From Amoebophrya sp. A120 (Eukaryota > Protista > Dinoflagellata): a stretch of DNA of 64,000 nt. The stretch lies in NCBI GenBank assembly GCA_905178155.1, contig CAJINV010000008.1, forward strand, positions 310,001 to 374,000, written 5' to 3'. The notes beneath the pieces are model-generated. The model worked only from the letters and a program-made list of their open reading frames with translations, ran no database searches and was not told where the DNA came from. This document shows, one piece after another, positions 3,015 to 37,760 of the stretch (position 1 is its first letter; every line of letters starts with the position of its first letter). The position numbers and the translations under genes were made by a program.

Positions 3015-3276
3015 TATCAAATGTAAAAATGTCTGGGTCTGGAAGATTACCAGGTTTGTCATGCACATTTTGCATGACTCCTGATGTCTGTGATGCATGC
3101 CCTAGCATCACAGATTTTGTGAGGGCTTCCTGATGCCTATACCGCATGACAAATGCTCTTTCCGTGTAGCAAAACTTGGACTCTCTTTGCTGCTCATGCG
3201 ATACAGATTTTTTTAGAATCGAAAATCAGCATGACAAGTTGCATTCTTCCAGACCCAGACATTTTTACATTTGATA
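3015..3276. mobile_element. Introner-like TIR element, family A (262 bp)
   Basis: Perfect 32-bp TIR tatcaaatgtaaaaatgtctgggtctggaaga. TSD tccgt at 3010-3014 and 3277-3281. Close copy of 34694-34961. Host ORF not established. Confidence 0.92.
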
Positions 3277-3959
3277 TCCGTCCTCTGGTTGCAACAGTGC
3301 CTCTTCTTCGTCACGGTGTACGGCCGTACCCTGACAAAAAACGAACCTCCAAAAAACCACACAACACGTCCAGAAACCGTGATGAAAATTCTTCTGCTGG
3401 TGCACCGGACTTCCAACCTTCGCCGCCAACATCAGACGAAAGACGCCTGCCACAATACATAGTGCCACGTCACGTTTTCGTTATTGGACATATCCAAATT
3501 GTATGTGTCGCGCTGCAGGAATCAAGCGAAAAAAAAAAAATATTCATATTGCTCGTTTTGATATTGTATATTTCAATGAGCCGTCAGCAGTACTCCTCCT
3601 TGTCCTTTGAACTAGTAGTATAGAGTATCTATGAAACTGCAGAGGAAACAAGATTAGAAGACCACGACTTTACACCAACTATGATGATACTGCAATTGCG
3701 CACCAGAGCCAGAACAATATCATATTCATTACATCACGCAAATGATCATCAAGCGTCTCCGAGAGCATCCGTTCGAGGATGTGGAAACAAGCCGCGCGTT
3801 GGCAAGAGGATAATTCGTGCACATTGGCAAACCCTTTGTAGTTTTTTCTCTTCGGTAAGGGCTTACTATATTCAAATTTATGAAATGCGTTCTGCACCAG
3901 AGGATGAAAGAGAACCACTGTCAGTCTGGGCTCCAGAAGTTGGAGAAAGAGAAACAAAG

Positions 3960-6653
3960 TCACCGGCTTCGTACTTGTTCGCGATACGCTTGCAAGCAAC
4001 CAAGCAAAACGCTCGCACAACACAGGGCAAATGCCACTTGTGCGGGTCTCTGAAAGCACTGCTCCACCGGATGACAGAATTCCGCCGAGGGGTCTTGCTC
4101 CGCGTGCGCTTCGTCATACGCGTGTCCGGTTAGTCGAGCCATAAACTTCACCGCAACGGACATGAAGAAAACCGGGAAGGCAAAGCCAAAGACCATGTTC
4201 TCCTTCCCGAAGTTGCTCACCATAAATGCTGGAAGCGTCGCCCAGTTGGCACCGTAGCAAAGGCCCACGAGCAAAAGCCAAAAAGAAGACGGGGCCGAGG
4301 ACGACGCTGTCGCTGTCGGCGAGGCCGTCATCAGCCCGAAGACGCAAGCCGCCGCCATACCGGCCCCGGCCAACAGCATGAGTCTCGCAATTCTGCCCGG
4401 ATCTTTTAAGTCATTTCCGCCCACCGGTGCTGCGGAGTTCGTTGGGCCCCTGCGCTCTGCAGCAGGCGGACCACTACCTCCAGAAACAAGAACTACCGGC
4501 CGCAGGATGAAGTAATCGATGCAGAAGCCCGCGAACAAACGGCCGCCGGCGTTGCAGAAGCTCACGTGGGTGACCACCGCATCGCGAACGCTAGGAGCGT
4601 AACCGTACGCTCCCGTGATCAGCTTCAGATTCGCCATAAACAGGCCACTCCCAACGCACTGCGTCAGAATGAACTGGATCACGACGAAGTGAAACTTGGG
4701 CTCGCGATACAAGATGTCGCGCCATGTGAGAACCCCAGAAGGTGTGGCGGAGCTTGCAATCGATGCACTGGCACCAATTATCCCGGCAGATGGTACAATT
4801 CCAGTGCGATCGGCGATTCTTACCTGTGGTGCATCATGTTCATGATCATGAAGATCTTCAGCAGGAGGACCCCAATTGTAATCTTCATCATCGACCACTT
4901 CGTCCTCATGAAGAATGTAATCATTCGGATTTCTGGTTGCGCCCAGCATTTTCACGTGATTCCGTGCACCAAAAATGGTGGCAGTTGCTGGCTGCAGGAC
5001 GTTACTCGTCTTTTTACGTGCAGCACTAGATGACGAATGATCATATTTGTGTGCAAAAACCTGTGCGGAATTCGCGTTGCGATGCTCGTATGAACTGCAA
5101 AAGTATCGCACTAGTATAAATTGCATTACAAATTAGCCCAGCATTACAAATTTAATTTGTAATGCTGATTTACCTTGAGAACGAGATTTGTAATGCATAA
5201 ATGCAATTACTACGAGTGCGATACTTTTGCACAGGATAGCTCGCTCAGCTGCAGCTGCTCCCGTTCCTCCTCCAGCTGCGTTCGCGCGCGAGCAGCTGCT
5301 ATCCAAATAGAAAACGTTGTTAGTGTAAATTTGTAGTGCGCAACACGCAAGATGATTGCGTCTGTCATGCTTGCCATGCGTCATAGGGTCCATTAAAGGG
5401 TGTTTTCCCATACTATCTGCGCATGACAGGTTTTTGCTGTAATGCCAGACAAATTTGTAATGCTATTCCTCCAAAAAAGTTACACCTACAATGTTTTTTT
5501 CTTGGATAGCTGCTGGAAAGGTCGCAGTAGAAGAAGAAGCAGTAGTGATTACAGCTGCCCTAGTGTGGTCGTCCTCCTCCTCTTCGGTGTTTGTAGTTAC
5601 TACTGTGCTTATTGGAACGACTTGCAGAAAGACCGCACCCATGATAGCCGTGAAAGCCCAGATTACTCCCGTCCAGTAAATGAACGAGTGCACGCTGTTG
5701 TGCAAGATGTGTGTGTAGACGGAGTTCCATACCGCCGCGGAGAGACCGTAGCCAGCGGCGAGCACGCCAGTAGTGCGGCCGACACGCTTAGTTAGGAGGA
5801 CGCCCGTGTAAAGTCCGTTCTGGTAAAGTGTCACGGACCCGTGCTGTATCAAAAAGTAGAAAAACGCCATTAGGGTACTGGAGACAGATGGCTGTCGTAA
5901 AGGTTCTTTTCTCGCCTGCTGGAGCAAGAAGTTGTTTCTTGCGAAAGTTTGCGTGTCGCTGCCAAGCGCATCGTCCGCAACGAGTCCTCGCGTAAGCGTC
6001 GTCCCCGCGGCAGGGACTGGCGGCAAATGCATGTAAAAGAAAATGCTGCCAAATCCAACACAACAGAAACTGTAAACGCTCGAATAAAAGACGCCGAACT
6101 GGTGAAAGATTGCCCCAGAGAGGAACCCAACCTTCATCCGCGGGAAAATTTTCCTTCCTCGTTGAGGCTGCCATAGTACGCAGGTCGCAGAAAGAAACGC
6201 AATCTACTTGCGGCGTCGCGGTACTGGCAAGACGAAAAGCTGCAAAAAGTCACGTAGAAAACTACGAGTAGACAAGTCGACCGATCGATCCTGCATGCCT
6301 CGTGGCCAGCCACCTGATAAGTACGAGCATCGGCGTCAAGGTAGAAAATTTTCACAATGAATATGCCCCACGCCAATTTGTCCGGCAGAATACAATACGT
6401 CGACGTCTGCCGCTTTCCAGTGCAGCAGTGTCATCAGGTCCGTCTCGAGGCCTGCAAACATGTAAAGCGTGCCGCCACAAATAGCATTCCACAGACACAA
6501 ACCAAAGACCGACAGAGCCGCGATTTTATTCTTCTCGTCATGATATCCAAGCGCCGGCGCTGATGTTGCCGAAGACGAAGATGCTCCACCACTGTTGGCG
6601 GAGGTCGCGAGGACGCCTGTGCTGGCATGCAGCCAACGACTATCATACAGCAT
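3960..6653 (-). CDS. Major facilitator superfamily transporter (nodulin-like/Mch1-type), 4 exons
   Basis: Hydrophobic helices with motifs GGTLYMF, GQIG|VGFLSG, AAGYGLSAAVW, CNAGGRLFAGF, GLCYGANWATLP and GHAYD. Joined via a GT-AG intron (6132-6371) and two TIR introns (5300-5508, 5089-5238), giving continuous ...TFPAAARARTQLEEEREQLQLSEHRNANS... Confidence 0.8.
5089..5238. mobile_element. Introner-like TIR element, family B (150 bp), non-canonical intron of the MFS gene
   Basis: tatgaactgcaaaagtatcgcact ... agtgcgatacttttgcacaggata. TSD gctcg at 5084-5088 and 5239-5243. Excision with one TSD restores frame. Confidence 0.9.
5300..5508. mobile_element. Introner-like TIR element, family C (209 bp), non-canonical intron of the MFS gene
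   Basis: tatccaaatagaaaacgttgt ... acaatgttttttttcttggata. TSD gctgc at 5295-5299 and 5509-5513. Excision gives FPAA|ARART in frame. Confidence 0.88.
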
Positions 6654-8105
6654 GACCGGCGTCAATTTTTTGAGTCATACATACACACGTTGGTTAACAA
6701 CTCCTGTCTAATCCTTAAATCCATCAAGAAATGCCTTACAAACATCATCACCCTGCTGGAATGGAAATTCTTCTCCAAAGGCACTAACATGCTTCAACAA
6801 CTCAAGGTCATCAACAGAATTGATTGAAACTGAAAGTGAAAGACGACGTGTATTGCGATTCAAGCAACCGTGGCTCTTTCTCACGAGAAACGATGTTGAT
6901 CATGCTCGCATATCTACATATTCATATCGTTGTGCCTGCCTCGCACTAGCACCAAGCACCACAGCAGGAATCTGTAAAAATACACTATCTAAATACTTAA
7001 CAATTGCGAGATTGAAGAGAACGAAGCGCAAACACAACCGATTCCTAGGCATTGAACAGGCCGACCTAAGCCCCTGTAATTGGATATCTACTTCTAGATT
7101 GAAGTTGAACATAAAGAAACGCGTTTTACCATCTGACAAGAACTATTACAACTTAATTTTTAGTTTTAAATTCAACCCTTTGCTCGCATCTAATGGAAAT
7201 GGTGCGCGCCCTGCGCGATTAACTCAATGTCAATCATAATTTGATTCCTCAACATGAGTAGCAGCCGCATGGCAGGCGCCCAAGAGCGGCGGTCATCGCG
7301 AAAACCTGTTCGACCGAAGTGTGTGAAGAAAGTGAGATTCCGATTGTTTGATGTTGATGTCTCCGCTTTTTTGGTTCTGTATAATGTTTGAATTCATGTG
7401 ATCTGCTTCTGCTTCTGTGACGAATGATCGCACGCCGGTGTCGTCCGGGTCCGGGACACAAAAAAGAAACGAACAACATCTTCCGGAAAACCGGACTTGG
7501 CAGTCAATGTAACGCTAAGCGATCGGCGCCCCAACGTTCGCTTTGTTCTTGGATGGATTTACACAAGCTTTTCGGTACAACATATACTTACGTCTTATCA
7601 CAACAATCTCGTCCTGTAGTCTTAGAGAGTCATCACCTCGTATTCAAACTTTTGCGCTAGCGAGCATCGAATGTCATTGTACTAACGTATGTTCTTTCAC
7701 CCTTCGGCTTCAGTCTCCGACACGGGAGCGGCCTCTTACTCTTACGCACGAAGTCCTACTTGCGTGTGGTGTGGGTCAGAGATTGGACAACCACAGACCA
7801 CTTTCGGACGTCCTGGTGCTCTACTGTAGTGCGAGTATTCATTCACAACTTTTTCATTTGTTCGGAACCGCAGTCCTGTTTGTCCACGTAGCGCGGCCGC
7901 ATTTACTCGTCTTCATGCCTCCTGCGAGACAAATGTGCGAAGTTTCTGTGTTCTCTAAAAGGTTCTTGAGGCACTACAAGCTGATCAAATGGCAGTTGCT
8001 TGGAGCACGAGGCTGTCGGAACTTTCTTGATATCGGGAGTAGAAAGGCTTCAGCCAAGAACAGTCGCACACTTCTTGCGCGGCAGCGGCTCCTCGATATC
8101 ATGAT

Positions 8106-11100
8106 CTATGACTCCTGCAAGTCTCGGCTGCCGGTGTCATGCTCCTGGTCGCGACAGCTGTGAAAGCTGGAAGATCGAGGGTTAGCGGATTTACCCGGTG
8201 CAACAGCGTTCGAGGATGAAGACCGCGCGTTCTTGACGGCGTCCGTCGCGTCGCCGGAGGTGGAATTCGTCCCACTGGATCGCGGTTTGTTTTTGCGATT
8301 CCCAGGATGTGTGCTGCCCTCGGCCAGGGACGGAAACTCGGCATCATCCAGATTCTCGTTCTTGTCCGGCCGATTTGGCTTGGCGCTCCAGCCCTTCACG
8401 CTCTTTCGCTGCTCGCCGCCTGTTGACGCACCGCTTATGGTCGTGCCCTTTCCAGTCGTACCAATGCTGGTCATTGGTGTCACTGTGAGTGTGATGAAGA
8501 TTATTCATGTTGCATGACAATGTCCATAGATATCCAGTGAGTTTAAGATACATATCTTAATCTTTTCCAAGCTTAATCTTAATACCCTTCGGAAGGCGAA
8601 GGGTATAAGGTAAAAAAATAATCATAATATCTTAATATGCTTGTCAGAAGTACCTGCAAGCTCGGAGAGATTGGAGTGTCCGCGGTCGCGACCCTCGAAG
8701 GCTATCCCAGTGTCTACCCGGGGATACGGCGAAAATTCACCCTCGTCCGCTCGTCTCAAACTTGTCGAAGATGATATTTGCGCTTTCAGGAAATCACCCA
8801 CCGACGCGTCCGCAGCCTCTTGCTGCTTCGTGGAGGACCACGTAGAAGCGGCGGCTTTTGCCTTCTTGTTCCCTGCCTTGTTTGATGAAACACTGCTGGA
8901 TGCGGCTTTATTGTCTAGCTGTTCGGTCGAGCTTGACGCGGCACTCCGACTGTCAGCTGAGTAAAGAGCCTTAGAAGTACTCTCTGGGGGTTGCTGGTCT
9001 AGTGCTTCGCTGCTTTTCGAGTTCTTGGCTTTCTTCTTGTTCTTTTTGTTGTTTGGGTTGCTGTCCTTATCCTGCTTCTCCTTCCCTTTGCCTTTTGCTT
9101 TATTTGGTGCGGCGCTGGTCGCAGCTGCACTGCTAGTATCCTTATCCTTACCACTGTTTGCTGCACCCTTTCCGGACGTTGAGCTGGCACTGCTACTCTT
9201 TATTCCACCGGACGAAGTAGCCGCGTCTTTATTTATTGGCTTACTCGGGCTTCTTCGTACTGCAGTTCCTGGCTCCATCCTCTGCTGCAGTTGATGATGC
9301 TGCATGTGCTGCGCGCGGAGACTGTCATTGTATGTGTTGTTTTTGCCGCCCGTGGTCGTGCCACCAATTGTTCCAGAGGTAGTACTGGCAGGCGAGCTCG
9401 CGACCGTTTGCTGCTTGTCGTTGCTTTTCCGTTCAGAAAACGGCATCTGCTGGGCCGCGTGACTGGCACTTGGTGGACTTGAAACCGCTACAGTTCCTGT
9501 TGTCGATCCACCGCCTCCACCAGCCATGGGTGTGCCCGGTGGATCCTTGTTGTTCCAGGCAGGAAGTCGCTCGTGTTCGTGGTCCTCTTGCCACTGCTTA
9601 TCGCGCACATGGCTCCAGCAATCGTCATCCTGTCCAGGGGACCACACGCTGGCCCCCGATTTTCCGCCTTGCTGCTTCTGGTGTGAATGAGAATGCTGCT
9701 GCTGGTGATCGCGCTCTCCTCCTTTGTACGCCTGCTGATTGCCAGAGCGGTGCGACGTCGAGTTACTAGGGTTACTAGTACTGTGCTGTGGCTGTTGACT
9801 ATTGTTGGGCAACATGTTGTAGTTGTCGCCTTTGCTATTGTTGCCGCCGGAGGCAAAAGACCCAAGGTGCTGGCGCTGCTCGTGTTGATGCGGCGCGTTG
9901 CTGCCGCCACCTTTACCGCTACTAGTGCTGTGTGGCCCTTGGCTGTACGGACTGGAACTGTAGTTGCTCATCTGGAAGTTATTTGGGTTCATCTGCGAGC
10001 TATGCGCTTGGCCGCCCTTCTGGTTTTGGTTCTTGTTGAACATGTTGCCCATCGGCTGCTCTGAGGAGTGGTAAGAACTGCTGCCTCCGATCGTCTGCTT
10101 GGACGATGAGTGCGAGCTGAACGGACCTCCACTTTTGCCGCTTCTGGGCGTATGGCTCATATTGCTGTAATTATTGTTCCCACTGTTCTGCCTCTGCAAG
10201 TCACCAAAATGTTGCTGTCCGTGATAATGATGCTGATGCTGCTGCTGCTGACCACCCTTGCTCATGCTCACTGAGTTCTCAGAGGAAGTCACTGGGTTAC
10301 TGTATTCCTGCCCGGGGCCTCCATAGCTTTGCGAATATTGTGAATGTGAAGCTCCTCCCTTGTTGTGCTGAGGTCCCTGCTGCTGCTGGAGATGATTACT
10401 ATAGTCGCCACCATTATAGTTGCTGCGCGTATCGGCGTGCGACGAGCTCATCCCGCTTTGTGGCTGCGATAATGAATGGTAACTGTTCTGGTGCTGTGGC
10501 GGAAGATGTCTATTATTTTTTCCCGGTCCACCAGGCCCCCCCTTGTGAGCAGGTCCTGAGGAACTGACACTGGAGCCACCTTTCATCGCCCCCGCTTGTT
10601 GGTTGTGATACTTGTCGCTTGGCTGACTGGAAGCGCTGGACCCCGGCTGCTGTTGATACGTCATGCTGCGCGGTGTCCAAGGCGCGGTCTGATGAGAAGA
10701 TCCCCGGCTCGTCGGGTTGTTGTATTCACCTCCGGCACTCCCCCGCGAGTTTTGCCGCTCGTAGGGGCCCACGCCCTGGTTGTAGTTGCTGTTGGACGAA
10801 GACGCGCCCATGTACGACTCCTCGCCGCGGAAGGCACCTGCTTCCCCATAATGATCGTTGTGGTGCCCCCCGCCTCCCAAATTTGCCTTCGTCGTCGCGG
10901 CGGAGCTCCCAAACAAGTGCTCGTCTAGATAGAAGGTTTTCTTTCGTTGGTTATCCATCTTGGCCCACTCCAGCGGATCCAGGCCTGCTGGCACGGGTAA
11001 ACCCTCCTTCATCGGCCTCGGCGCGTGGGACATTGGGTGGTTGTTGCCGGAAGAGCTTGTTCCCGATGAATGGGGCTGTTGTTGCTGAGCTGCCGGATTT

Positions 11101-14100
11101 ATTGTGTTGTCGTCGAAGAAAGTCAAGTGGTCCCTGGCGTTGCCCGAGTTTTGTCTTCGGTACATCAAGTTGCTAGTACCGCTACTCTTGTTGTACCCGC
11201 CCTTGCCTCCGTCGTGGTGATGTGCCGGTGTGGCGGGGCCCCAACTGGTGGTGGACAGCGCACGGCTCTTGGTAGTCTGTTCTTTATCTTTCGCACTTGC
11301 TTGCTGCTGGTAACTAGTACCTCCTCCTGGTGGTCCGCCTTTGCTCGAAGCCGATGCGGTCGGCCCCCCGGCAGAAGATGATGTTGCCTTCTTGTGCGTG
11401 TTCGTGGGTGGTGCTGGTCCCATCTCACGACTGTAGTCGATCTGGATGAACCCTTTTGCTCCCGTCGACCTTGACGTTCCGTCCGGATTCAGATCGCCCC
11501 CCGTGAGGTGATCTCCGCTGCCCGACTTTGAGCTGCCAGGAAGGTCCTCCATCTCGGAAAGGGAAGAGTCCGGGCCGGCGTTTTGTACCACCAGAACATC
11601 CTCACGACGACCGGAGGGAGTCGTGTGCTTGTTTCCCGCCACATGCTGAGTGTTATCGTGGTTCGTGTTTGACGTCATCATCTTTTCCGGTATGGACCTG
11701 GGTGTATTGCTCGACGTTTGTTCACCCCCGGAGGCACTGTTACTTGTCTCCGACACAAACCCGGCCGCGCCCGGCGTTCGTGGCCCTCCCTGCTTTCTGC
11801 TGCTGGTCGGTTGCCCTTTGGCCAAGCCGCCCGCGGTTGCCCGCTCCGAACTTGGGCGGGCCGAGGTGGCGGACGAGGTAGACTGCTCTGGCAAGGTGCT
11901 GATCGGAGCAGGAAGTGGCAACTGATGTGTCTCATCCTCACCGGAACTTGGGTTGTAGGTGGCGCGATCCTTTGGACCCTGCACCGGCGAGGGGATCAAT
12001 CCACCCGGTGACTGTGGAGGTGGTGACTTTGCGCTTGTTTCTTCCTTGATATCATCTGCCACCTTGTCTTTCTGGTGTTCTCCACCTCCTGCTTCACCAG
12101 AAGTCGATAATTGCAGCTGCCGCTCCTTGTCATCGACATTCTGGTTGGAGGTAGAAGTTGTGCCCTCCACTTTGCTCCTGTTCGCGTTCCGGGCAGCGGC
12201 CCGGTCACGAATGCTCTGCGCATTGACCCGCTTCGAGAATTGCTCGTGCCAGACCTTCAGCTCTGTCCCTATTTCATCGCGACCCTGCTTCAGCTTCTCC
12301 TGTGTGTCTTTGTGCTTGTTGCTTGTTCGCGTTTTGCTCCCGTCGTACGCGGCCGAAACCCGGTCCATTTTCCCCGCCATATTGAACTTAGTGCTTGCTC
12401 CGGGAGGAGGCAGTGTTGCCTTGTTTCCGGGCGAAGGATGTGCTTGTTGTCCACCGAATTTGCTACTTCTCAAGCCCAGCTGTGCAGCTGCAGCCCCTGG
12501 AAAGTCGTCGTACCGCTGCTGTTCAAGATCATACGCCGTTTTGTTCTTCCAGTACTGGTCCATTAAGTTCTTGCCGAACACATCTTTTCCGTGGCGCGTT
12601 TGGGGCCCCAACTCGAGCGCCATGGCATTGATGTTATTCAGGGGCTGCCTGTTGCCCGTCCGGGCGTAGGCACTTTCGCTGCCCGAACCTGAACCGGAAG
12701 CAGGCTGTTGACTATCAACGTCGCGATCCGACGCCCTCTGCGGTATCTCGGGAAGGGGCGCAGAGAGCTTGGCTCTTCGATTTGTCGTGTTTGTCGCCTC
12801 CTGCTGATGTTGTTGACCAGTACGCGGGGGCTTGTTCGAAGATCCTTGTCCAGCGTTGTCTCCGTCTTTTTTCTGGACCGCAGAGGCACTACTAGTTGCG
12901 CTCTTGCTATTCGCTGCAGTGCTGGTGAAGCTCGGAGACAGTGGCTTGTTCACTAGCTTTCGGCTTTTGGTTTGTTTCTGCTGAGAACTAGTACCCTGCA
13001 GGTTACTAGTCGACGAAGCCGCAGACGACCCTGCTATGGGCGTCGGCGGTATAACTGGGATGCGTGCCTGCTGCTGCTGTTGCGATGTTGAAGGTTGCTG
13101 CTGATTGAACAGATCATACTGCGGCCGGGTCGTGGTCTGCTTTTGTTCCGCCGGCTGGCCCTGCTGCTGATAAGTTCCTAGCAGCGTTTTGTTCTTCGAG
13201 CTGGGGTCCACCAGACCCGCGAGAGTCTTGTTATTGTGGACCGCCGCCGCCTGCTGCATCCCTGCACCTGAAGCGCTCAGAAGCGACATCTCATCCTCCG
13301 CGTCCACCGCAGCCGCCGGGCGATGGGTACGACGGGTGCTAACGCCTCCGTACTGGTCCGCGGTTCTCTCCATATCAGCATCCATCAAGAAAAGATCCGC
13401 GACCAATGAAATGTGGTCTGAAGGCCAGTCGGCATTTGGCATGGACCGCGTGGGGTGCGTATTCCACTGCTCGCACGACAAACGCTCTTCGTCGAAAATT
13501 TGCAAAACTTGAGCCACCGCAAAGGGTCTCGTAAACAAAATCTTGTCCAACTCACCGCAAGAGTGGTACCTGTTGTAAGTACATGTTTTTTTTCGCTCAT
13601 TCTACTTTAGCTTTACGACCAAACACATTCACGATCGTGAGGCTTTTAAAGATCAAATAACTTTAAAAATTTCATTTTGCTTTTTTCTGGCGAAACATCA
13701 CAAAACAAATCTTTACGTGTCGTTATGGGCCGTGGTGACCGATTTTTCTCCGTTTTCCATGACTGATTCGTCGTTCAGGACGAAAGCGTCGTAAGCGGAG
13801 TCGAACTTTTCAAAGACGCACCGCGTTTCGTCCCTGATACCGTTCAAGTCCCCGACTATCAGCACTATCGCACGAAAAAAGTGTTACAGTTACACATTTG
13901 TTGTCAATTCAGCAACACAAATTTCCCTGCAGGAGAGAGAAAACCTGCAATGCAGAAATCCTACGGGAAAACACCTGTGAAAGGAGGCTCCTATGCATAT
14001 CCGGCATGACAGAGCTTGTCTGTCTTGCTTGGCCTGCAACGCAATGTGTAACTGTAACACTTTTTTCTCAGGATAAGCACCGGACGAGAATTACTGTCGT

Positions 14101-21283: not shown

Positions 21284-23199
21284 TTTGTGCTTGGGCGAAG
21301 CACGAACGTCAATTCGATCCAATTACCCGCAAACCTTTTTCTCTGCGGTAATAGAGCCACGACTGCAGCCGATGCAGTTCCAACTGCAACTGTTATAATT
21401 CGTCAACTTAATCACACGGCATCCGCATCGTCTTCGACTTCGTCAAGAACTCTCGCATGAGAAAGGATCCGGCTAAAAAATATCCAAACCGTCATCCGCT
21501 CTGCCACCGGTAGAAGCGCAAATCGTCATCCATATAGTTTTTGCTTAACTTCACGGGGAAGTCGAAGTGAGGAAGGGATATGGGTAAAAAATTGTGCGGG
21601 TTTCGTGTCAATAAAATGGGTATCAAGATATTCAGTGAAAAGAATAAGAAATTGGCAAGAAGTAGTAGACGGTAGTCGTATATAAAAATGTTGTGGTCTC
21701 CGTCTCGGTCTCCGCGAAGAAATGGTTGTAGAAAATGCAGTTGGCACATCTACTAGTGGTTTTCATTTACATTGTCATGTCGCAGTTGGTCCAGAAGAAA
21801 GCTAGAGGCACTTGAGAATATCTTCCCCTAATCCGTTGATGCTAAGAAGCTAACTGCGTTCCTCGACCACGGCAATGATGTAAATCTACTGCTGGCTACG
21901 ATGTAAATACTCACTAGATGCGGGTAGGTGCCTTAATAGCGTTTTAGTGTTTATTGTAGTCTAATTTAATTGGAAATGGAAATTGTCTGAGTGTCAAAAA
22001 ATGACAAACACACAAAAAAAAAAAAATGTGTGAGCCGTTTGGTCCACCAGGAAGAGAAGGGATGGTCAGCGACGTTCGATGGCTCTATACCACAGAAAGT
22101 TGTCGACTGAAAGCCACGCCCACGCTTATTAATCCTGCACCTTGACTTTGTATCATCTGTGCCTTAATCGATTGTGCTACAACTACAAGCTAAAAAAAAC
22201 CACGTGTCGTATAATGTATAGGCCGTCCACATACCATAATTCAAGTCCAACCAACCTACTACAGGGAAAAGAAGTATTCTTTTATCATTTGCCGAAGAGT
22301 ATAAATGTTGAGCACAACTTCTTCAACAACGGAAAAATATTTAAGCCGTAGTTCTCAGGTTCATCCGTATACTTTTTGTAGTGGTTGACCGCCTGTGAAA
22401 AAGAAAGATAATAAAATGAGGTTTTTCCAAAAGCGCAATCCTTATTTGCTAGCCAGAAAAAGAACCATGATGATTTTTCACATTCTTGCTACCACCTACC
22501 ACTTTCATCTTTGTCTCGAGGAAGAAGTTGTGATCGTTTCTTATTTTGATGATTCAAATTCAGGAACATGGATTTAGTCGCTTTGGTTTCAGGCGGAGAT
22601 CTTCGGAACCGAGGCGCTTTGCTCTGCTCTTCTGTTGCATTCGTCTTTCACTTTCATCTTATTATGATATCTTGGTCTTGCTCAATTCACTAAAAATTTG
22701 ACTAGGACCCAATTTTATTTTGCACGTCCGCTTCGTCGGTCGCAACGACGTCTTCACGACGATCGCACGATCGAGGGGGTTCCACAACAATCAAACCGAG
22801 GATCGCGAGGAGCTCCATAAAAAAGATTTACATTTCATGATCTGCTTGTCTTCTCGTGCGCGTTTCTTATTTGGCACTTCATCACGATATTGGTTGTCTC
22901 ATCTACAAAAAAAGCATACATAGTGGAAAATGCAAGGGGCGCCGGAGTGCTGGGGTAAAAAACAGAAAAAAAAAGTGTAGCGAAAATTGAGTATGATGAA
23001 TGTCCGTAAGCCCTGCCACCTTCTATCGTATTTTTATCATTTCTGCAATCTTACAGCGTGGCCTGGTAATCATATTCTGTAGCTTCTTGCAAAGGGTGCC
23101 GCTCTACTGTGCTGCTACAGAAATATCGACTCCGATCTACCAGTCTGTCTAGAACTGTAAATGACTTGCAAAACTACGAGGGGTCAAGAGGTCTAATAC

Positions 23200-24058
23200 G
23201 CACAGGGAGGGCAGGGCTGTTGTTGGTTTTTCGAAAGACGTCGATGTGCATCAAAGCTGTCTCCGTGTAGGTGCGCAAAGTACCACGCACGATCGTTGCA
23301 TAGAAAAGCCACTCGATCTCGAAGTTCCAATACTTAATACTGTCTATGTTTTTTCTGTAATAAGTGAACGAAAGTCAGGTCTTCTTGTTTCTGTTTGCGC
23401 ACGAGTATATTTATAATCAAAATCATGCTCCAGTGTGAAAAAGGACGAACCGACGGGCACCATTTGTTGTCCATGGTGTCACAAAGTTTGAGCACACGAT
23501 CGGGAACGAGAGAGCACGGCATGCAAACAGACCGACTACTGCACAGCAATATTTGTTCGTTTGCTTTGGTTGCAAAGGCTGAGCCTAAGTTGTCTTCGTC
23601 ATGATACAGAAAGCTGCTCCAGGCGTGTGCCTGTCACGATCAACCGAGCGAGCGCGAAGTGTAACATCAATAAAAGAAACCGAGCGACTTTATTGTGTTT
23701 CCTAACAGATGCTAGTAAGTAGATCAATGCCGTCGTACTTCTTCTTCTCCTTCCTTGCAAGAACAGACCAAACACCGTTCCGATCAACGATATCAAACGC
23801 ATTATTGCTATCGTGTGCTTCGACTTTCATCAGCACGCTCAAACCGAGCTCCTGTCACTGGCAAGAAAAGAAGCGAAAATTTCAAGGCCACGAATAGCAG
23901 AAATCTTGATGTCTGATTTTTATTCGCTATATGCATTTCAATTTCTTGTTGTTGAAGCATCAGGATCATCAGCTTCTCGTTCTCATCCGTCATTAATACT
24001 CGCCCTTCGTCGCTGGCGTATCTCTATCTTCTGCAAATGCAGCACCGATCGATTCATG
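23200..24058 (-). CDS. Probable exons of a small multi-exon hypothetical gene; boundaries approximate
   Basis: Protein-like open stretches (LGLSVLMKVEAHDSNNAFDIVDRNGVWSVLARKEKKKYDG; AWSSFLYHDEDNLG...; WNFEIEWLFYATIVRG) separated by AT-rich intron-like gaps. Not fully assembled. Confidence 0.35.
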
Positions 24059-24911
24059 ACTGCGACTGCTTCAACAGGCGCGGGGGGCAGTGCAGCCTAT
24101 GCAGAAAGGACAGGGTGAAACAAGTATACGATAAAGCCACTGACCATAAAGAAGATCAGGCCCAGTAGAACTAGAACTAGAAAACAGAGTCGAGTGAGAG
24201 ACACAACAAATCAAAATGATGACATACTCGGTGCGTCGCCATAGCTACAGTCTGAGTCTGACTCATGTAGTTTATGATTAAATTGAGGTGGAAATACCCC
24301 CGCCAGCACCACTGCCCCCGCAATTAAATACTCGCTTGACCGAACGAAGCTACAGAGCGCCGTGTAATGACTATGAGTATTCAATCACAATCATATAAAC
24401 GAAATCTAGATCTACAAGAAGTGCTCGACTTTCTGCTTTTGCTTTTTACATGTGCATGTACATAATGTCAAGCTAGTATTGGGCCTTCTCACACTTTCGC
24501 GCGGTATCGAATGCCGTCCGATTTTCTTCTTCCGATGTTGTCGTGGGCAATGACCGTGTTGCGTGTTCCGCGTAGACTGCTTCGGTGCTGGCCCGGCTCG
24601 ACGACTGATCGTTCGTGTTTCTGGAAGTGTCAGTTACAAAATCTGCAAAGTGACAATAATTTGCGACACTCTGAAATGCGACCCAGAGTGTCACGCAGAG
24701 AAGACAAAAGAGACCGATTCGAACGACCCTGATGAGGCTCAATTGGGGGCTTGCCCTTTCTGAAGAGCGTGACAAGAGCGTACGACAGATGCAGTCTAGA
24801 CATGGACAAAATTATTCGTCACGCGTGGCCCCTTGGAACTGCAACTGGTGCCACTAAGTCCTCAAAATGGGATTTTTTTATGCAAAGAAATACAAATGCA
24901 CGGCAAACTTT

Positions 24912-26982
24912 TTATAAACTCCATTTTGGAAATTTCCAACCTGACGCTTCCGTAATCTCGTCCTCGACTGTATTTGTCTTCGCCATGAGAAGCTTTGTCC
25001 CCTCTGCTGGTCTTATGCTTTGCTGTTTGCACGCCAATCCTCGGCTGTTGCGCAGAACTTTTTGCGGCCTCTGCTCCACAACCTCAGGTTCCACGTCGTA
25101 CCTTTCCCCGTCTTCCGCGTCTTGTAATTCGGTCTGCTCTCCTTCAACATTACTGTTTACCCCAATCGCGCCTTTTGTTGAGACGGAAGCACCTCGTCCA
25201 CCAACCCCCGGTTCTCCTTGCTGTGCGAGTTGCATCTGTTCCATCAATTCCGAGACCTGTTGACGCAACAAAAAATTGGCCTGCTCCAACTCGGCAACAC
25301 GATCTAGCGTTGTGGTGTAGTAGGAATGCTCAAGCTCCATCAGATCTCCTGGATTCGGGCCGCCTCCGAAACTCGAATCTAGGTCTTGTTCGTTAATACG
25401 GAACTCCTCATGTTTCGACGCCGAAGGACCATCTTGCGTATGCAGATGCGGCGTTACCGGCATCGTGCTTGTGTTTCCCCCCGTCGCACAAACGCTGCTC
25501 TCCTTACTGGCCCTGAAGAATAAAGTTAAATTTGCTTCTACCTCCCTACTTTCATGCGAATTTTCCTGCTGCTCATCTTTTAGTTGTAGGCCACGGCAAA
25601 CTTTCAGTTTAAAGTTCCAGTTCCTGTATCTCTACATAAAATCAATCTCAGTCTACTTTTACTTTCGTCGTCTCCTGATTTTATTTGAAAAAAAATACTT
25701 ACCGCTGGCTTCGCGATGCGAAGATATCTTCCAAGTCGGGCGGAATGAGACTGGGCGAGTTGGCGGGCTGCTGCCCCGGAATGTTCGTAGCTCCACTACC
25801 AGCAGTGCCTCCGGCTCCTCTCGCGACTCCCGGGGGTGGCGGCGTTCGCGGAACGGAGCCGCAGCCAAGGTTGTAGCGCGGCGGCAGCCGCCCCAACGGT
25901 AGTGCGGGCATGTTCACTCCTGTGCGCCGGGGCGAAAGCAAAGTCGGCGAAGACGCACGCGATGAGGGCGGCAGCGAGCTCACAGCATGCGTCGGGAATG
26001 GCGCACTGCTCAGCCCCTTACCTTCATGTTGATGTTGTTCAGGAGACCATTGAGGATGAAACAAACTGCTCAGATTTTCTCCTCCTGTTCATAACTATGA
26101 CTGAGTAACATTCTGTAGCTAGCGTAGTTAGAACTCGACGCGACTTGTCGACTTCATCTTCGCGGCGCATGTGGTACAATCAGAATGAGACTAAGACTAA
26201 CAGAAATGGAAATCTCTCTTTGGAGGAAAATAAAAATGATCAATCGAAGTAGTCTTCTATGACGTTGCTTCAGATGCGAACTAGGTTTGGGTAGTACCTT
26301 GTTCCAGTGCCAGCAGTATTTTTTTCCCTGCAGAGGAAAGATGCAGGCCCGGACTGTATCCCTCTCCCCCACCGATTGTGCTCTTGTCCCGCTCGGTACA
26401 TCCGAACAAGAATCCAAGCCAGTTGCCGAGACCGAAAAAGGACCCACCATTGCTACCTCCTCCGCCCATAATTTCAACGACCGAAACAGACATGCTGTCG
26501 CTGTGGCTGTCGTCGTCTTGATCCACGTTGTATCTGTTCGAGTTTCTCGTCTTCACACTGGACGACGTAGGTGGAGCGATTCCTGCACCTGCACTGCCAG
26601 GCAGCGGGTGCTCGCTCTGCGCATCAAGGAATACCTCCTTGGACGTTGATGCACTGACAGCCAGGGGTGGGCCCCCACTGTCCTGGGATTGCTTACTCGT
26701 GTTCTTGTCAGCGCCACTTCCTCCCTCCAGTAGTACTATGTCATTCGCTGCAATTACCGCTGGCTTCTCTGGGTGGCTCAGGTCGAGGCCCTTGCCGGAA
26801 AAAATCGACCGCGCCACTTGTCGCAAGGAGGGCGTGAGTTGGTACCAGACCGCCCGGAGCTCGCCGAGCAAATTGCGGTAGTTCAAAGCCTGCTTTTTCC
26901 ACTCCCGCCGACTGCTCGCCAGTCTCTCGTTCTTCTCCTGCAACAAAACGAGGGCGCGGTCAAGCCGCTGAACGAGCGACAT
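24912..26982 (-). CDS. Hypothetical multi-exon coiled-coil protein; boundaries approximate
   Basis: Co-oriented ORFs 26281-26982, 25699-26064 and 24912-25463 with coiled-coil-like segments (LDRALVLLQEKNERL; LDRVAELEQANFLLRQQVSELMEQ). Confidence 0.45.
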
Positions 26983-27862
26983 GATTTAATATCTTCTTCT
27001 TATCCTTGTATGTGCAGGCGACAAGAATGCACTGTTTCACTTTCTCCAGAATGATATCCGTATTCTCTACTGCTACTTCCTCGTGCGTTTGAAACTCGAA
27101 AGACCACACCTCACCGTCTGAGTTCTTTTTCCTGTGCCCGAATCCAACCCGACCGCGTCACTCGCCGCTCCTTCTCGTCCCGCTGATCCAATAGCAGCTG
27201 TAGTCTGGTGCCCACGCGCACCCTTTTTTTTTTTTTCGTTTTAGCAATACCCTCTCCGGACGGCCCAACAAGCTCACATTGACATTGGCACTCATTGAGG
27301 TGCTGCGGGCGAGGGCGTCTAACTGCCTCGCGACGCAGACTCGAAACCGAAGCGACGGACTCGCAGCCCCAGTATCGGCCACCAGACGAGAAGTGTTCGC
27401 GTTTTGATGTTCAAAATTTTTTCGTTTTTTCACCAGACAACAGAACCGGAGGGAAACCTGGGAAAGCTCATAAATGTGAAGAAAGAACACTGTTGAAAAC
27501 TTACACCTATCACTACCGCAGCTGCAGGTGGTATACAACCGACCAGGACCACCTCGTTCACGTCTGCAGCTGCAGGACAGTAAAAACATGAATCCTGTTC
27601 AAAAAGAGTGTTCTCTTGCCTGCGTAGTTGTTTTCTTTCGTCGTGTAGCTGAAACCAGAATCGCCGTATCTCTGGAACGGTGGGACAAATAAAGGACTGC
27701 TTTGTGAACGGCTTCATCGTTGATCAGGACCGAAAATAGTTAAAGGAATGAGCAAAAAAACTGTTCTACGCCTGCTACACCTCAGTACTTCGTTAACGGT
27801 TTCGTCGTCGTCTGTGCCTCTCCAAGCATTACTTACACTTAGGTCAGCACTTCCCCGCAACT

Positions 27863-29413
27863 TCACTTCGATCCGCCAGATTTTGCACTCGCGGCTTGTC
27901 GCTGCAATTCCAACTTCCGCTGCGTCATTACGCGATCGCGCTCGTCGATCGCATCCTCCTCCGCTTTGGACATGCCATTTTTCTCGCCCCAGCTAGTCAG
28001 GGCTTGCATCCCCATCTCCAACATCGGGTTGAGTTGCGCCCCTTTTCGCCAATATCCCGCTAGCGAAGCGTCTTGCATTTTCTTATCCTCCAAACCCATT
28101 TGCGACAGAATCATGCGCGACCCGCTCGCACACCCGACGATGGCGGCGTTGATCGAAGACCAAAACGGATACCCAAACAGCGCTCCACACATCCACACGC
28201 CCGGCGGATAGTTTCCCTTCGGAGCGTATTTTCCCTTGCCGTACGTCTTCGGCTTGTAGTCGAGCGCATGTATCAAAGCGTCCAACGTACTCGTGCCAGC
28301 AGCCTTCGCTGCAAACATCTTGGTTCCAACCCCCGGCGCCTCGTAAGAAGTGATGCCGGCCAGGTCGTAGAATTTTACGCAGTCCTCGATGCGTAACGAC
28401 TCGGCCAGCCGCACGATCTTGTCCCCAAGCCTCGACTTGCTACCTTCCGCAAGAAACGGCGCCGTGTGCGGGTCCCCAGCGGGGAGGCAGTCGTCGTACA
28501 GAAGTTTCAGCCCCGAGTTTCCGCTATCCTCCCGAATATACTCTTCCAGATAGTCATACCAGATCCGAAGTCCCTCGGCCTCAAACAAATCGATCACCTT
28601 CTTGTCTTTCAACTCCTCCCGCAGAATGTAAAACTCATCGAATAATCTTAATCCGTCCGACAGCGCACAACACGCGTTACTGTCGTTGCGGCGATAGCAA
28701 CACAACCCCGAATCTTTTTCTCCGCAGAGGCGCTCGACCTCGGCCATGACTTTCGCGGCCGGTTCACAACCAACGAAGTCAAAGGTAATAATTTTGTTCA
28801 CCGACTCCTTGTCGATATGTGCTGGGATCAGATTGAAGACCGGCTTTTTTCCCACCACGCAAAGCTCTTGGAGCTGTTCCATTATCTGGGCGGCCGAATA
28901 CTGATCAAAATGGTGTCTACAATGCCGAAATTCGTAGTTTTTGAGACAATCGTCGCAAAACGGCACGAGGTCCTTGCCAGCACGGCACCACTGTGGCGTC
29001 TGGAGCATTTTCACGAGCGCGTGGCCAGTAAAGCTCGGCTTGTATTGAAAAGATTCGATGAACCCGCAGAAAAGAGCATACCCATCGTACTGCCTCATCA
29101 GAATCGAAATGTGTTTCATGGGATGATGTGGAATGAGATTTTCGATTTTAATCTTCTTCATTTGTCTCGGATCAGGACTCGGGTTGATGGCCAAAGCTTG
29201 GCCTTGTGGTGTTTGGACGAATTTGCACATGTCAACAATAAGTCGCTTGTCTCCGGTTGAGTCGTAGCCGAGGACGCGACACGTCTGACCGTTGAGGTGC
29301 TTCTCAGATTCATTCTTGAGGCCAGAAATTTCGAACGGGTGCACTGCGCCGCCTTGTTTTTGGAGATAACACTCCATACCGCGGACGTCCCGGCCGGTGA
29401 GAGCGGAAGGCAT
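27863..29413 (-). CDS. Hypothetical protein, 516 aa, single exon
   Basis: Long ATG-started ORF with globular composition. The N-terminal ISGL..EKHLNGQTCRV...KRLIV...KIENL resembles an SH3/KOW-like module common in protist proteins. Confidence 0.75.
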   Translation of the reverse strand: MPSALTGRDVRGMECYLQKQGGAVHPFEISGLKNESEKHLNGQTCRVLGYDSTGDKRLIVDMCKFVQTPQGQALAINPSPDPRQMKKIKIENLIPHHPMKHISILMRQYDGYALFCGFIESFQYKPSFTGHALVKMLQTPQWCRAGKDLVPFCDDCLKNYEFRHCRHHFDQYSAAQIMEQLQELCVVGKKPVFNLIPAHIDKESVNKIITFDFVGCEPAAKVMAEVERLCGEKDSGLCCYRRNDSNACCALSDGLRLFDEFYILREELKDKKVIDLFEAEGLRIWYDYLEEYIREDSGNSGLKLLYDDCLPAGDPHTAPFLAEGSKSRLGDKIVRLAESLRIEDCVKFYDLAGITSYEAPGVGTKMFAAKAAGTSTLDALIHALDYKPKTYGKGKYAPKGNYPPGVWMCGALFGYPFWSSINAAIVGCASGSRMILSQMGLEDKKMQDASLAGYWRKGAQLNPMLEMGMQALTSWGEKNGMSKAEEDAIDERDRVMTQRKLELQRQAASAKSGGSK

Positions 29414-30465
29414 GTTGATGAGTTGTTTTTAGTAATAAATGCCTGATTTCGATGCTTCAACTTCGCATTTGAAAAAATTCGACAGAACGATGAGGGGGTA
29501 AGGCTCTCTGGTGCGCGAAGCGGGGAAAAAATCCATTGACGCGAGAAAGAAATGAGCAGCCCTGTCACGAGCGAAAACCATTCACGGGGAAGGTTCGCAG
29601 AAAAAGCGGCGAACCAAACACAGGCCTGTTCCTTCGTTTTTGATTTTATTTTGACATGAGTACTAGCAAGAATAAGTTTGATACAGTTGATTGCTTCGTA
29701 TTGACGTTGATAGCCGATTTTGATTTATCTTGATGTTGAAGCACGTCCGTGACTATGTTGGTATAGATACTCCTCTTCAAAAATGAAAAGCACAGCGAGA
29801 GAAGCGACTATGAAGTCGGGGTAGCTTGTTTGTCGAAGCAAGCATTTTGGGTTGCAACTTGTAACATAGATGACATGACACAGTACGTATGAGATGAAAC
29901 TATTGACTCGGCTGCAGCAGAAGTTCCTTGTACTTCGTAAAGACTTTTTTGTGGTCACGGCAAATACTAAGATGTCGTGCTCGTGTTGGTCATAGATAGC
30001 AGGAATCAATCCTTAATCGCCCGGCGTCACCGTCGTCGAGACGGACAAAAAATAAAAATAACGGAAAAACTGCTTATGTTCCTCTGCTTTCTGCACTTCT
30101 AGTTCTACTTGAGCTCTACCATGATTGATCGATGGAGGCTCGTCTGCGTAATTGGTGAATTATACATGTGCATTCGCCGAGGGTGACGTGCTTAAGCTTA
30201 CGAAAACGAAAGTTTGAAACTGAAACTGATACCCAGTTCACGAATTGTATCGATAATATTCGGCCACATCGATAATTTCTGTTGAAGTTTTACCCTTCGA
30301 AAAAAGTGGAGTCTCGTCTGATTTTATGTGATGTAATATTGGTCCTACCACTGTAAAAATAATTTTGCACATTCGATATTGATTCGTCTGACGACAAAAC
30401 TCAATCATGAGACGTGTCCTCTCAGTCCTCGCAACGCCCGTAGGTTCTTCATCCTTCCGTTCTTT

Positions 30466-33400
30466 TCACACGCCGCTGAGCAATCTGTAGCCTGTCCAAT
30501 CGGCAGGAGCGACGTAGTTATGTTGCTTCATGAAGTTCAGCAAACACTGCGAGGGACCGTCCACGGGTGCTTATCCTGATTAAAAACGTCCCCACACCAG
30601 AGTCAAGATGGGAAATCTGCTACACAAATTTACTAGCCTTCGTTAATTGGCATGACAAGTTTGTCCTCGTACGTGCAATCCTGTTTTAGCTAGTTCAGAA
30701 GCGTCACAGATCTAGCATAGCATGCTGATTCTAGCATCACAAATTCCAAAACACGACTAGAAAATCAAAATGCTTCTCATAGAGCTCCGCATGAGAAACT
30801 TCCTTGGCATGCAGAATTGCATGACAACTATGGGGTGGGGATGTTTTTACACGGAATAGTGCTTCGACCTTTTTCACCTGTGCTGCCGCTGCGCCGCGTT
30901 TGCTAGGACTCGCACCGGTACCCTCCGCGAGTCGCTTGCTCTTCTGTTTTGTGGTCGTTCAGTCGTGTAGCTGAACTGAATACGCATGGTAGCAGAGGCA
31001 AGAAAAACCAACATCAAGGTCGGTAGATCGTCATGCACGCATCGCCGGAAGAACCAAGTCCACTTGAAAAGGTTCAAATGTACTAAATGCGCAAAGATCA
31101 AGATGTAGTATACATAGTAATAGTTTTATTTACCGCAAACCACGCGAGGTCTTCTTCCTGTGACGGCTCTGGGACGTATTTTTGAAAGTCCTCCAACTTC
31201 TTCCTGGCAACCGTCCACTTATGGAAGCGTCAGGTTTGAAATCGTCAAAGTTGAAATAATTTGTAATGCATAAAATGCGACACAGAAAGTGACTCTATTG
31301 CAGAGGACCCACGGGAGGCAGATTATAGTCCTGGTAAGGGTCACAAGTTGGACTGCTAACTAGCATGACAGAAGGCAGCTCTTTGGCCCTAAACCGCATG
31401 ACAGACTCGCTTCCAGGACCGGGAAAATTTGTCACGCACCGACTACAAACTGTAGGTCTAATTGGTATGCGTTTTATGCATGACAAACTATTTCAACTTT
31501 GACGATTTCAAACCTGACACATCCGTACCACTCACCGCTTTCGTAGTTGACGAAGGCCATTCCGAAGCGATGATGGAATTCCGCTGTGAATTGCTCCGTC
31601 ATGAGCCGAATGTCCTGGTCCTCACAAAATTCGTCGAAGGGGACGTAGTTCTCGCTAAGCCGCTCTTCCTTCGTTTCCTCCCTCTGCAGCCGCATCTGAA
31701 ACTCCTCCTTGCGCGACAATTTTTGCCCCGTGAAGGTCGATATCTTTTGCTGGCCACCACGTGCGGCCGCGCCGCCTCCTACCGCGGCGCCCGATGCTGT
31801 GTTCCGAGCCCGCTTTTTGGGGCTCGGCGACGCAGACCCCGCCCCGTGTCTGCTTGGGCTGGTGGCCGCCGCCTGTAGCAATGTATTGCCACCAGGTACT
31901 GTGCCCGTTTCCGTCCGCCGCTGCCGCATGTTTTTCCGGTTCTTCGTATTGGGCGACTCGAAAAAGTTCGTGGGAGGTTGAAGATTTGTATGCTAGGACA
32001 GTTTTCCTCGGAGAACTTGCGACCATCAAGTAGAAGGTACCTTCTTCTACCAGAACTCTAACAACGCAACACAACTGTAAGTAGAGGTACTAGTAGCACC
32101 TCCAGCAATACTAAGCTCGTATCTGGACCAGACTTACTGTGAAGGAAGCGAGCCAGGCAAGACTAAGAAAAGTAAACCGTTAAAGAAGACATCATGATCA
32201 TGCACAACGAGGACAGGAGAGTTTTGCAGCATAGATCTTCAGGCAATTGCTGTCTAAGTCGAGGGTGTAGAGGTAGAAGGGCTTCTTGATCCCACTCACT
32301 AGCACGCGGTCCACGCGGCGAAGCTTTCGCCGGTACGGAGGAGTCACACAGTGGGCTAGGTGTTCGCTGATCAACAATGGCACACCGTACTGTTTTGTCG
32401 CGGCTTCCAGCTGGGCACTGAGATTTACCTGGAAGAATAAAATCGCGGAAAAGGATTTATACAGAAGTAGTTGCCGAAAAATCATGCGTGGGACGAGAGT
32501 CATTCATCCAAGGACCTTCCATATCAACAAGTCGTAAGGGTGCAAGTAGCAGCAGCTGCAGAAGGTGGAGGAAGAAATAATAGTTCCATCATGAAGTTGT
32601 ACGTGTGGCGAGAGGTAGCTGGCGTCCACTTTGAACTCGCTTCCGATAGCGCCTTCAATGGCCCATCCGCGGTGTAGTCCAAAACCCATTTTCACGCGGT
32701 AGTTCGGCATTCGATTGAGCAGCCCCTCGTGCAGGCGGTACGTCGCTAACACTGGGGACCGGTTGGTGGCGGCGATGATCCGTGAGAAGCACATCACCGC
32801 TAGTTCGCTGATCCGGCACGCCTCTCCGCGGTGAAGCTCCTCGTAGGAAATGTCGGACGACTTCGTGATGTACCCTAATCGCCACACTAGCAGAAACGCG
32901 TCACCGATGTTCTTGTTCGGAGATCCGCAGTGCGCATCCGTGACGGTGTGCACGATCTCGGAAATCTGATCGCATTTTTACATTGGAGCCTACGTACTAG
33001 ATCATTCAAGAGTATATTAACAGCACGCGAAACATCAAAAATCCTACTTATCCTTTTACTATTTGAGCAGGAGAAAGTAAAAACATCCCTTCCATACAAG
33101 AAACAAAGGCCGAGCCAGTTTTTGTACCCGATTGACGAAGAGCATGACACCGTCCTGAAGAATCTCCGTGGCGTCCGTGAAGTTTCTAATATCGCAAAAG
33201 CCAAAAATAGCGTCCATGTACTGACCATCAACCATGGTGTTTATTGCACTGGTTGTGTCCGAGTCCTTCATGTTGTGTCCGATCACTGCTGAGCCTGCTT
33301 CTCCAAAAGCGAGCGCGCAGAGACCCCCGAGTTTGATAATGGTTTTCTCCAGGATCACCGTCTCCATCAGCTTGGAGGACCCCGGATCGTCGTTCCAAAA

Positions 33401-36937: not shown

Positions 36938-37760
36938 GTTCTCCCACGTCCTGCCAATAAAGCTCTCTAGTAAGTCTCAGACCACTTCTCCTGGTCTCTC
37001 ATGTTTATAATCTCTAGAGTAGAACTACAGAGCTTTTTACGCTATGCCTCGCCATCGGTCATGCTTGGTTGTTGCTGTTGCCGCGGTGAGAACGATAAAA
37101 GAAAAATCAATGAATTTACTATATCTTTTCGTAGTTTATTTCGGGTAACTTCATGATCAAGCATCCCTTCATGACGCACAGCTGAGCCCCTGTCGCTGTC
37201 CAAGCTCCGCTGCACAACGAAAAAAAACCAAAGGTAATGTAAATACAGGTTTTCATTTTCACTTCGTGTACATACACCCTCCATCGTCATCAAATGTACA
37301 CAACCGGGAGGTGGAACATCACACCCACTAGCACTACATCGATCAAGAAACACCATACCGCATGAGCCTCACAAGGCAGGTTGTTGGAAATTAGTGCTGC
37401 GGCACAGAGTAAAAAAGTCTGCCTGTACCAGTAATTAATGCTTCACCGGTGCAAACTCTTCAATGCTCTAGCCCCTGGCGCAGCTTTTTCAACGACGTCC
37501 AGGTGAATGGCATAAAAAATCAATCCCAATCCGGGCTTCCAATTCTATAAAATTCAAGGTTGGACGGGAGATATTCTCCCATGTACTTCATTTACTCACG
37601 AAACGTAGAAGTGCCTTCGCGTTCGCGGTCGTGATCCGTCATTAAGATTCACGGTCGCGGAAAAGAAAGCTCTCTAGAGAAACGTCGACTCTCTTCACGA
37701 ACCACAGGGAGAATACTACAGTTACAATTGAAAGATTATTTTCTTCCCCCGTTCTTGCTC

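Follow-up and report, generated by a model that had tools for sequence, protein, structure and literature searches.

Introners in the window

We analysed a 64,000-nt stretch of the genome of Amoebophrya sp. A120 (assembly GCA_905178155.1, contig CAJINV010000008.1, positions 310,001 to 374,000 of the forward strand), hereafter called the window, which contains twelve short elements bounded by terminal inverted repeats (TIRs) and sharing an internal motif of the type GCATBACA (B being G, C or T). A scan for inverted ends flanked by duplications of 3–6 bp yielded 292 raw candidates, of which 12 stood out, and a dedicated search returned the same 12 (Table 1; elements are named here by their first position). 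Their ends read TAY..RTA, with an exact 5-bp target-site duplication (TSD) in 12 of 12; TAT opens 23 of the 24 ends (the remaining one has TAC), and AAA occupies positions 11–13 in 21 of them. Deleting the element together with one TSD restores the reading frame on the minus strand in eight of the twelve, as at element 159, where a minus-strand frame opens, and at element 5089, whose host gene has a weak, below-cut-off match to MFS_1.

For all three elements tested, the part missing from contigs of RNA type is precisely the element and one TSD: 155 nt are skipped at element 5089 (4/4 runs), 214 nt at element 5300 (4/4 runs) and 215 nt at element 13866 (1/4 runs). The same contigs also skip four GT-AG-compatible introns and one further non-canonical intron. 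In none of six minus-strand registers does any of the 12 elements have GT..AG boundaries, and they therefore fall outside the definition of canonical spliceosomal introns. The raw RNA runs X9 and X10, with only 143 and 5 mapped reads, were uninformative on splicing; about 140 reads of the poorly mapping run X9 lie at 3228–3278 and join a family A end to another flank, and these come from a family A copy left unspliced, either elsewhere in the genome or in a different strain. Element 3015 itself is highly repeated in DNA run X1.

These 12 elements match the published Amoebophrya A120 introners, showing the TAT-N7-AAA inverted repeat, the direct repeat, removal from RNA-type contigs (three of three tested) and repeated families. 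The available portions of Farhat et al. (PMC7789003) describe the same TAT-N7-AAA inverted repeats, with direct repeats of 3–5 nt and co-oriented gene blocks, and the lengths found here (150, 210, 252–262, 280, 307 and 320) compare with TIR families of 149, 209, 252–260, 278, 305 and 317–319 bp reported for A120 (PMC12130899, partial text).

Table 1 Elements of the window and a control intron; + and - give the strand of motif sites.
Feature	Position	Description	Motif sites
Family B element	159..300	142 bp, TAT..ATA, 5-bp TSD	2 sites: 217-226 +, 232-241 -
Family A element	3015..3276	262 bp, 30-bp TIR, 5-bp TSD; three inverted pairs (N7, N8, N7)	strict: 3055-3064 -, 3087-3096 -, 3105-3114 +, 3144-3153 +, 3229-3238 +
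Family B element	5089..5238	150 bp; non-canonical intron of minus-strand MFS-like gene	5123-5132 +, 5141-5150 +, 5156-5165 -, 5187-5196 - (2+2, GCATTACAAA)
Family C element	5300..5508	209 bp; non-canonical intron	5361-5370 -, 5421-5430 +, 5436-5445 -, 5454-5463 -; relaxed 5330-5339 -
Control non-canonical intron	6131..6364	minus strand, AT..GG; degenerate terminal stem; skipped in 4/4 RNA-type runs	
Family C/D element	13866..14075	210 bp; non-canonical intron	one strict, 14004-14013 +, antisense to minus-strand gene; two relaxed
Family E element	30572..30858	287 bp	strict +: 30650, 30734, 30789, 30819; relaxed 30619
Family F element	31220..31527	308 bp, TAT..GTA	31260-31269 -, 31363 +, 31396 +, 31478 +
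Decayed element (thirteenth)	33907..34048	TAT..ATA, TSD with one mismatch	no intact motif
Family A element	34694..34961	268 bp	5 strict
Family A element	42439..42700	262 bp; orientation opposite to 3015 and 34694	5 strict
Family A (subfamily 2) element	48888..49153	266 bp	4 strict
Family A TIR with divergent interior	49221..49477	257 bp	8 strict
Family A (subfamily 2) element	50923..51185	263 bp	3 strict

A motif shared by dissimilar families

The GCATBACA-type motif is genuine and is shared by otherwise dissimilar element families. It occurs 43 times in the 2,884 nt of the 12 elements and seven times in the remaining 61,116 nt of the window (14.9 versus 0.115 per kb, a 130-fold difference), which bears out the impression, voiced in a preliminary description of this DNA, that the motif is sparser in the flanks. 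Dinucleotide-shuffled elements contained 0.68 copies on average and four at most (300 shuffles), and the excess is not owed to family A: the six elements outside it hold 17 copies in 1,306 nt, against a shuffle mean of 0.28 and a maximum of 3 (1000 shuffles). Every motif instance quoted in that description is present in the element to which it was assigned, with four sites in 5300, one in 13866 and four in 31220, and motif-bearing elements also lie beyond the part of the window it covered, at 159 and from 34694 to 51185, together with the decayed copy at 33907. The seven copies outside elements agree with the 5.8 expected under a third-order Markov model, i.e. chance level, so the motif is not a common host regulatory site in the window. 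One full motif at 8512–8521, within the canonical intron 8483–8653, may be a chance occurrence or the relic of an old element.

A larger sample came from a scan for the family A inverted repeat, which gave 130 loci (792 kb) in another assembly (contigs JACKZZ01). By the same rule these hold 332 short elements, nine longer candidates being set aside. Adding the 12 elements of the window gives 21 clusters, 18 of which carry the motif; the three that do not are singletons. The form GCAT(G/T/C)ACA proposed initially is present, and the true motif proved longer and looser, with the consensus GCAT[G/C/T]A[C/G]A[A/G][A/G] in the elements of the loci. Across 1,328 GCAT.A.A sites, position 5 is G in 55, C in 27, T in 16 and A in 2%, position 7 is C in 80 and G in 15%, and positions 9 and 10 are purines in 95%. 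In the window a purine directly follows all 43 GCATBACA sites within elements, and GCATAACA does not occur; element 30572 has three GCATBACA copies and one GCATGAGA.

The motif is also conserved within families. In 18 subfamily alignments, identity to the subfamily consensus was 0.966 at fixed motif positions versus 0.875 at other interior positions, and with CpG removed and bases matched it was 0.965–0.968 in the motif versus 0.856–0.882 elsewhere. Changes within the motif follow its degenerate code and not mutation bias: G>A makes up 8 of 55 changes of G at position 5, compared with 802 of 1727 for the same transition in the background, while position 7 swaps C with G and positions 9–10 swap A with G (all counted as alignment cells, not events).

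In the seven subfamilies with at least 11 members, variants present in three or more copies were 7-fold rarer in the motif (6.1 versus 43.2 per 100 columns) and singleton variants 1.8-fold rarer (15.4 versus 27.9 per 1000 cells; Fisher p 1.7e-7), a pattern of depletion resembling that of the inverted repeat core. Since shared variants are far more depleted than singletons, the alignments point to selection acting at copying. The enrichment, conservation and variant depletion together uphold selective retention of the motif; neither a background-level frequency nor ancestry without retention describes these data. We consider the idea that the motif is a functionless relic of common ancestry refuted at this sample size: some families do retain residual similarity, and the consensuses of B and C contain a common 43-nt module with the same site layout, but a relic would account neither for conservation above that of neighbouring positions nor for code-respecting substitutions and a fixed spacing across unrelated spacers.

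Spacing of the sites and target-site bias

Sites on the same strand, 30–33 bp apart, recur in nine of ten family consensuses (two of the ten families being homologous), compared with a mean of 2.3 and a maximum of 7 in 5000 randomisations, and the spacers of these direct pairs are dissimilar between families. The outer site usually points outward, its G lying 40–41 or 48–52 nt (once 63) from the element end; in element 31220 the outermost sites stand 50 nt from each end. Helical phasing of the outward sites is suggestive only (Rayleigh p ~0.002–0.009 at 10.5–11.5 bp, from 19 values and the best of 13 periods). The spaced inverted pairs emphasised in the preliminary description do exist in family A, with 123 strict pairs of 7–8-nt spacer in 157 elements. 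They are nearly confined to it, however (153 of 163 inverted pairs with 7/8-nt spacers), and the pattern that crosses families is the direct pair, with its sites 31–33 bp apart.

Most families also share a bias in where they insert. Of 681 half-sites, 48% carry a T at the position 13 nt outside the duplication, where the background frequency is 22%, and no such bias appears at offsets shifted by -3, +3 or +6. The preference holds outside family A (161/370, p 6e-20), in the half-sites of the window (19/24) and clearly in seven of the ten families tested. This shared target bias is independent evidence for related integration machinery.

Gaps of less than 400 nt between neighbouring elements in loci L001–L079 are rarely shorter than about 40 nt (10 of 110) and peak at 41–51 and 62–77 nt, a distribution suggestive of some constraint on the spacing of insertions or on the size of exons.

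A probable DNA-level role for the motif

We interpret these introners, with a probability of about 0.7, as non-autonomous inverted-repeat elements that are precisely cut from transcripts, and their motif as a putative double-stranded DNA site for the transposition complex. In such a mechanism, a transposase of the DDE/integrase type, provided in trans, or else a protein that partners it, would bind motif pairs on double-stranded DNA; the paired sites, lying on one helical face three turns apart, would allow the ends to be gathered. The element would then be cut at TAT and inserted with a 5-bp stagger, sites with T 13 nt outside the duplication being favoured. Copies that keep the motif would be those that spread, and within one transposon lineage motif and spacing would have been kept while the intervening sequence drifted. 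Splicing, for its part, probably depends on the paired terminal ends (TIR positions 11–30) and not on the motif. Among 67 family A elements that do not match the search pattern, agreement between the two ends exceeds chance at positions 10, 14, 17, 18, 25 and 27–30 but not at 4–9, which fits either pairing or shared descent of the ends, the two being inseparable here.

Several points weigh against this interpretation. No transposase was recognised by Pfam in 25 open reading frames (ORFs) of the window or, among the 266 coding-like ORFs of the loci, in the longest 111, and no autonomous element was found in the window or the 792 kb of loci, the eight long candidates under 5 kb having been examined out of nine (the ninth measures 8.9 kb). 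The available text of Farhat et al. (PMC7789003) likewise reports no transposase in A120 and makes a case against mobilisation by such an enzyme. One TAT..ATA element of 2.94 kb (locus L058, 11264–14203) does have perfect inverted ends of 25 nt and a 5-bp TSD; it has no strict motif and no convincing ORF, and contains internal short tandem repeats. Near the ends of family B there is no outward site. Family E (19/60), cluster 5 (6/24) and cluster 9 (2/12) show little or no preference for T at -13, and a G at -11 is found only in families A and B; such differences in bias are mild evidence against a single enzyme. Singleton variants within the motif are also reduced (0.55 times), which leaves room for some selection after insertion.

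The sampling imposes further reservations. A perfect TSD and TIR were required of the elements, the loci were picked by a match to the family A TIR and are thus biased towards family A and young copies, the gene strands used below are predictions, and the RNA evidence consists of assembled contigs from four runs of a single sample, and that this sample is RNA is itself a guess. Nor are the families fully independent. The preliminary description had called them unalignable, which is only partly true. Elements 5300 and 13866, 63% alike, belong to a single cluster, and the likeness between 159 and 5089 reaches 75%; clusters 4 and 8 are homologous to each other, and among the 45 pairings of family consensuses, 10 score above all 100 motif-preserving shuffles. 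Similarity beyond the motif in those ten pairs makes deep common ancestry likely, and the families likely descend from one transposon lineage.

The eight long candidates (<5 kb) were rejected as autonomous elements, being nested or mis-paired elements or non-coding insertions. Unpaired element ends had no mate that could be matched by eye, and the family A TIR core had no match in viral contigs.

Which protein might read the motif

The early proposal of a recognition site common to the families and working on both strands is supported, as a putative function predicted from sequence. Its first option, one transposase, fares less well: none was found, TIR positions 11–30 match within an element and differ between families, and the G at -11 is restricted to A and B. 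Several related transposases, or one shared partner protein, suit the data equally well.

A more radical arrangement, which we regard as unlikely though worth stating, dispenses with an ordinary autonomous transposon: one domesticated or unrecognised protein would read pairs of the motif three helical turns apart and so mobilise the many dissimilar families behind thousands of non-GT-AG introns. This would amount to a new trans-acting system of intron spreading, its mobility code being independent of what identifies a family, namely the terminal stem used in splicing. Also of low probability is that a host DNA-binding or architectural protein binds the motif as a transposition co-factor, each family group having its own transposase that reads TIR positions 11–30. 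Host co-factors of transposons are well established, and this arrangement would suit the strong differences in TIR core between families that share a constant motif, the detail of target bias that varies by family group, and the failure to find a transposase. Against it, the motif is at chance level in the host DNA of the window, and spacing this strict, anchored at the ends of the element, would sooner be expected of a protein that the element encodes. The DNA-level mechanism would be the same as the one we favour, only the protein being different.

The motif and splicing

Because the elements are removed from transcripts, the motif could instead be a splicing signal for introns without GT-AG ends, read either by an RNA-binding excision factor, as the preliminary description offered as its second option, or as a DNA mark during transcription. 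In its favour, all three tested elements are removed although none of the twelve is GT..AG, U1 was undetected in A120 according to the available part of PMC7789003, and the modest depletion of singletons in the motif would be expected. A gene strand could be called for 155 of 310 elements; in these, however, motifs occur 256 times in sense and 290 times in antisense (p 0.16), and family E, whose sites all point one way, is sense-only in eight copies and antisense-only in six. Element 13866, which lacks a strict motif in the sense orientation, is skipped in one of four runs, and the control intron 6131–6364, which has neither a TSD nor a motif even under relaxed matching and no relatives in the loci, is skipped in all four. 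With elements lying in genes in both orientations, and an odd intron being spliced although it has no motif, we regard RNA binding as an unlikely role; the excision factor is not supported. The DNA-marking variant survives the strand argument but not the motif-free intron, and the far greater depletion of shared than of private variants tells against both. We consider a splicing function for the motif improbable.

The least probable explanation, in which the inverted pairs would serve as hairpin stems in a step through RNA or single-stranded DNA (REP/HUH-like), or else as tyrosine recombinase core sites, is largely refuted, since the 7–8-nt pairs of family A, the strong folding of element 5089 (z -7.9 relative to shuffles) and similar letters in many bacterial tandem repeats stand against the near-confinement of such pairs to family A, the one-strand sites of family E, arms without covariation at position 5 (same letter in 88 versus 78 expected) and position 8 (70 versus 83), though agreeing more at positions 7 (91 versus 75) and 9 (87 versus 59), and a 5-bp TSD with TIRs that points to a DDE enzyme.

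Relation to known systems

The elements are known, and the motif within them is apparently an undescribed cis-code that would, by analogy, work like known subterminal transposase-binding repeats. The accessible text of PMC7789003 describes no internal motif, spacing rule or target bias for A120 introners. Motif strings were not found in 12 of 14 supplementary files searched, and neither they nor a description of an internal motif appeared in the relevant literature searched, supplements included, in the portions available (figures, theses, subscription papers and bioRxiv supplements lay outside the search); the accessible parts of PMC12005148 and of bioRxiv 10.1101/2020.10.14.339549 add nothing further on such a motif.

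Among A120 elements, a match in termini and TSD length is family 38, listed by Gozashti et al. 2025 (PMC12130899, partial text) as 'Ginger; 5-bp TSD, TA/TA termini', an intron-creating TIR DNA element; it differs in its 808 bp and in having ORFs that resemble Copia/Gypsy integrase regions. An integrase-like ORF in a family with these ends and this TSD counts in favour of the mechanism proposed above. Most other A120 families appear there as 'TIR DNA, unknown'. The TA..TA termini are also those of IS3EU/GingerRoot elements, as far as the available text of PMC10045372 and PMC6839031 goes, and by this analogy an integrase-like DDE transposase would be the likeliest enzyme type. The elements nonetheless stand apart from that group, in which the TSD is usually 6 bp (5 bp in 12 of 12 here) and the TIRs of GingerRoot measure 100–150 bp (about 30–55 here); the word 'subterminal' is absent from the accessible text of PMC6839031.

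Internal transposase-binding repeats are already well known as a principle. In maize, dissimilar non-autonomous elements of the Ac/Ds1 group share short internal repeats (AAACGG) bound cooperatively by the transposase (PMC3260210), a situation similar by analogy to ours, and in Arabidopsis the Lemi1 proteins, of the pogo-like superfamily, bind subterminal motifs of the miniature inverted-repeat transposable element Emigrant (PMC1636448), both as given in the available portions of these papers. Ac/Ds belongs to hAT, with an 8-bp TSD, which the 5-bp TSD here sets apart. According to the same partial sources, the Ac/Ds and Lemi1/Emigrant families share their TIR, whereas in Amoebophrya the TIR core varies and the internal motif with its 31–33 bp spacing is constant; a further difference from both is that every insertion tested here is a precisely removed intron.

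The accessible text of PMC7789003 names as open questions the spread and the splicing of the non-canonical introns of Amoebophrya, which number tens of thousands. Through a conserved, spaced motif and a common target bias, many families are linked to a single transposon lineage, and these features offer a pull-down bait as well as a signature by which the autonomous element could be traced. Separating a mobility signal (the motif) from the likely splicing signal (the terminal stem) would make both questions testable.

Similar motifs elsewhere and other features of the window

A search for motif pairs found six loci in viral contigs and at least 121 in prokaryote genomes, by eye mostly tandem or REP-like repeats. 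Many bacterial genomes (L137–L257) contain such tandem repeats with the same terminal letters, GCATGACA, which we judged unrelated; the likeness of the prokaryote and viral pairs to the introners was judged coincidental, since the variants in the elements break the GTC letters.

The window contains a second kind of inverted-repeat element at 61998–63329, with 26-nt arms that are 88% complementary and each open with a donor-like GTAAGT; its interior is GC-rich without a Pfam match, and the element has no match in the loci. An uninterrupted minus-strand frame of 521 codons, with no Pfam match, spans 27863–29428, and a short tandem repeat with a period of 48 nt occurs in 2–3 copies at 60824–60987.

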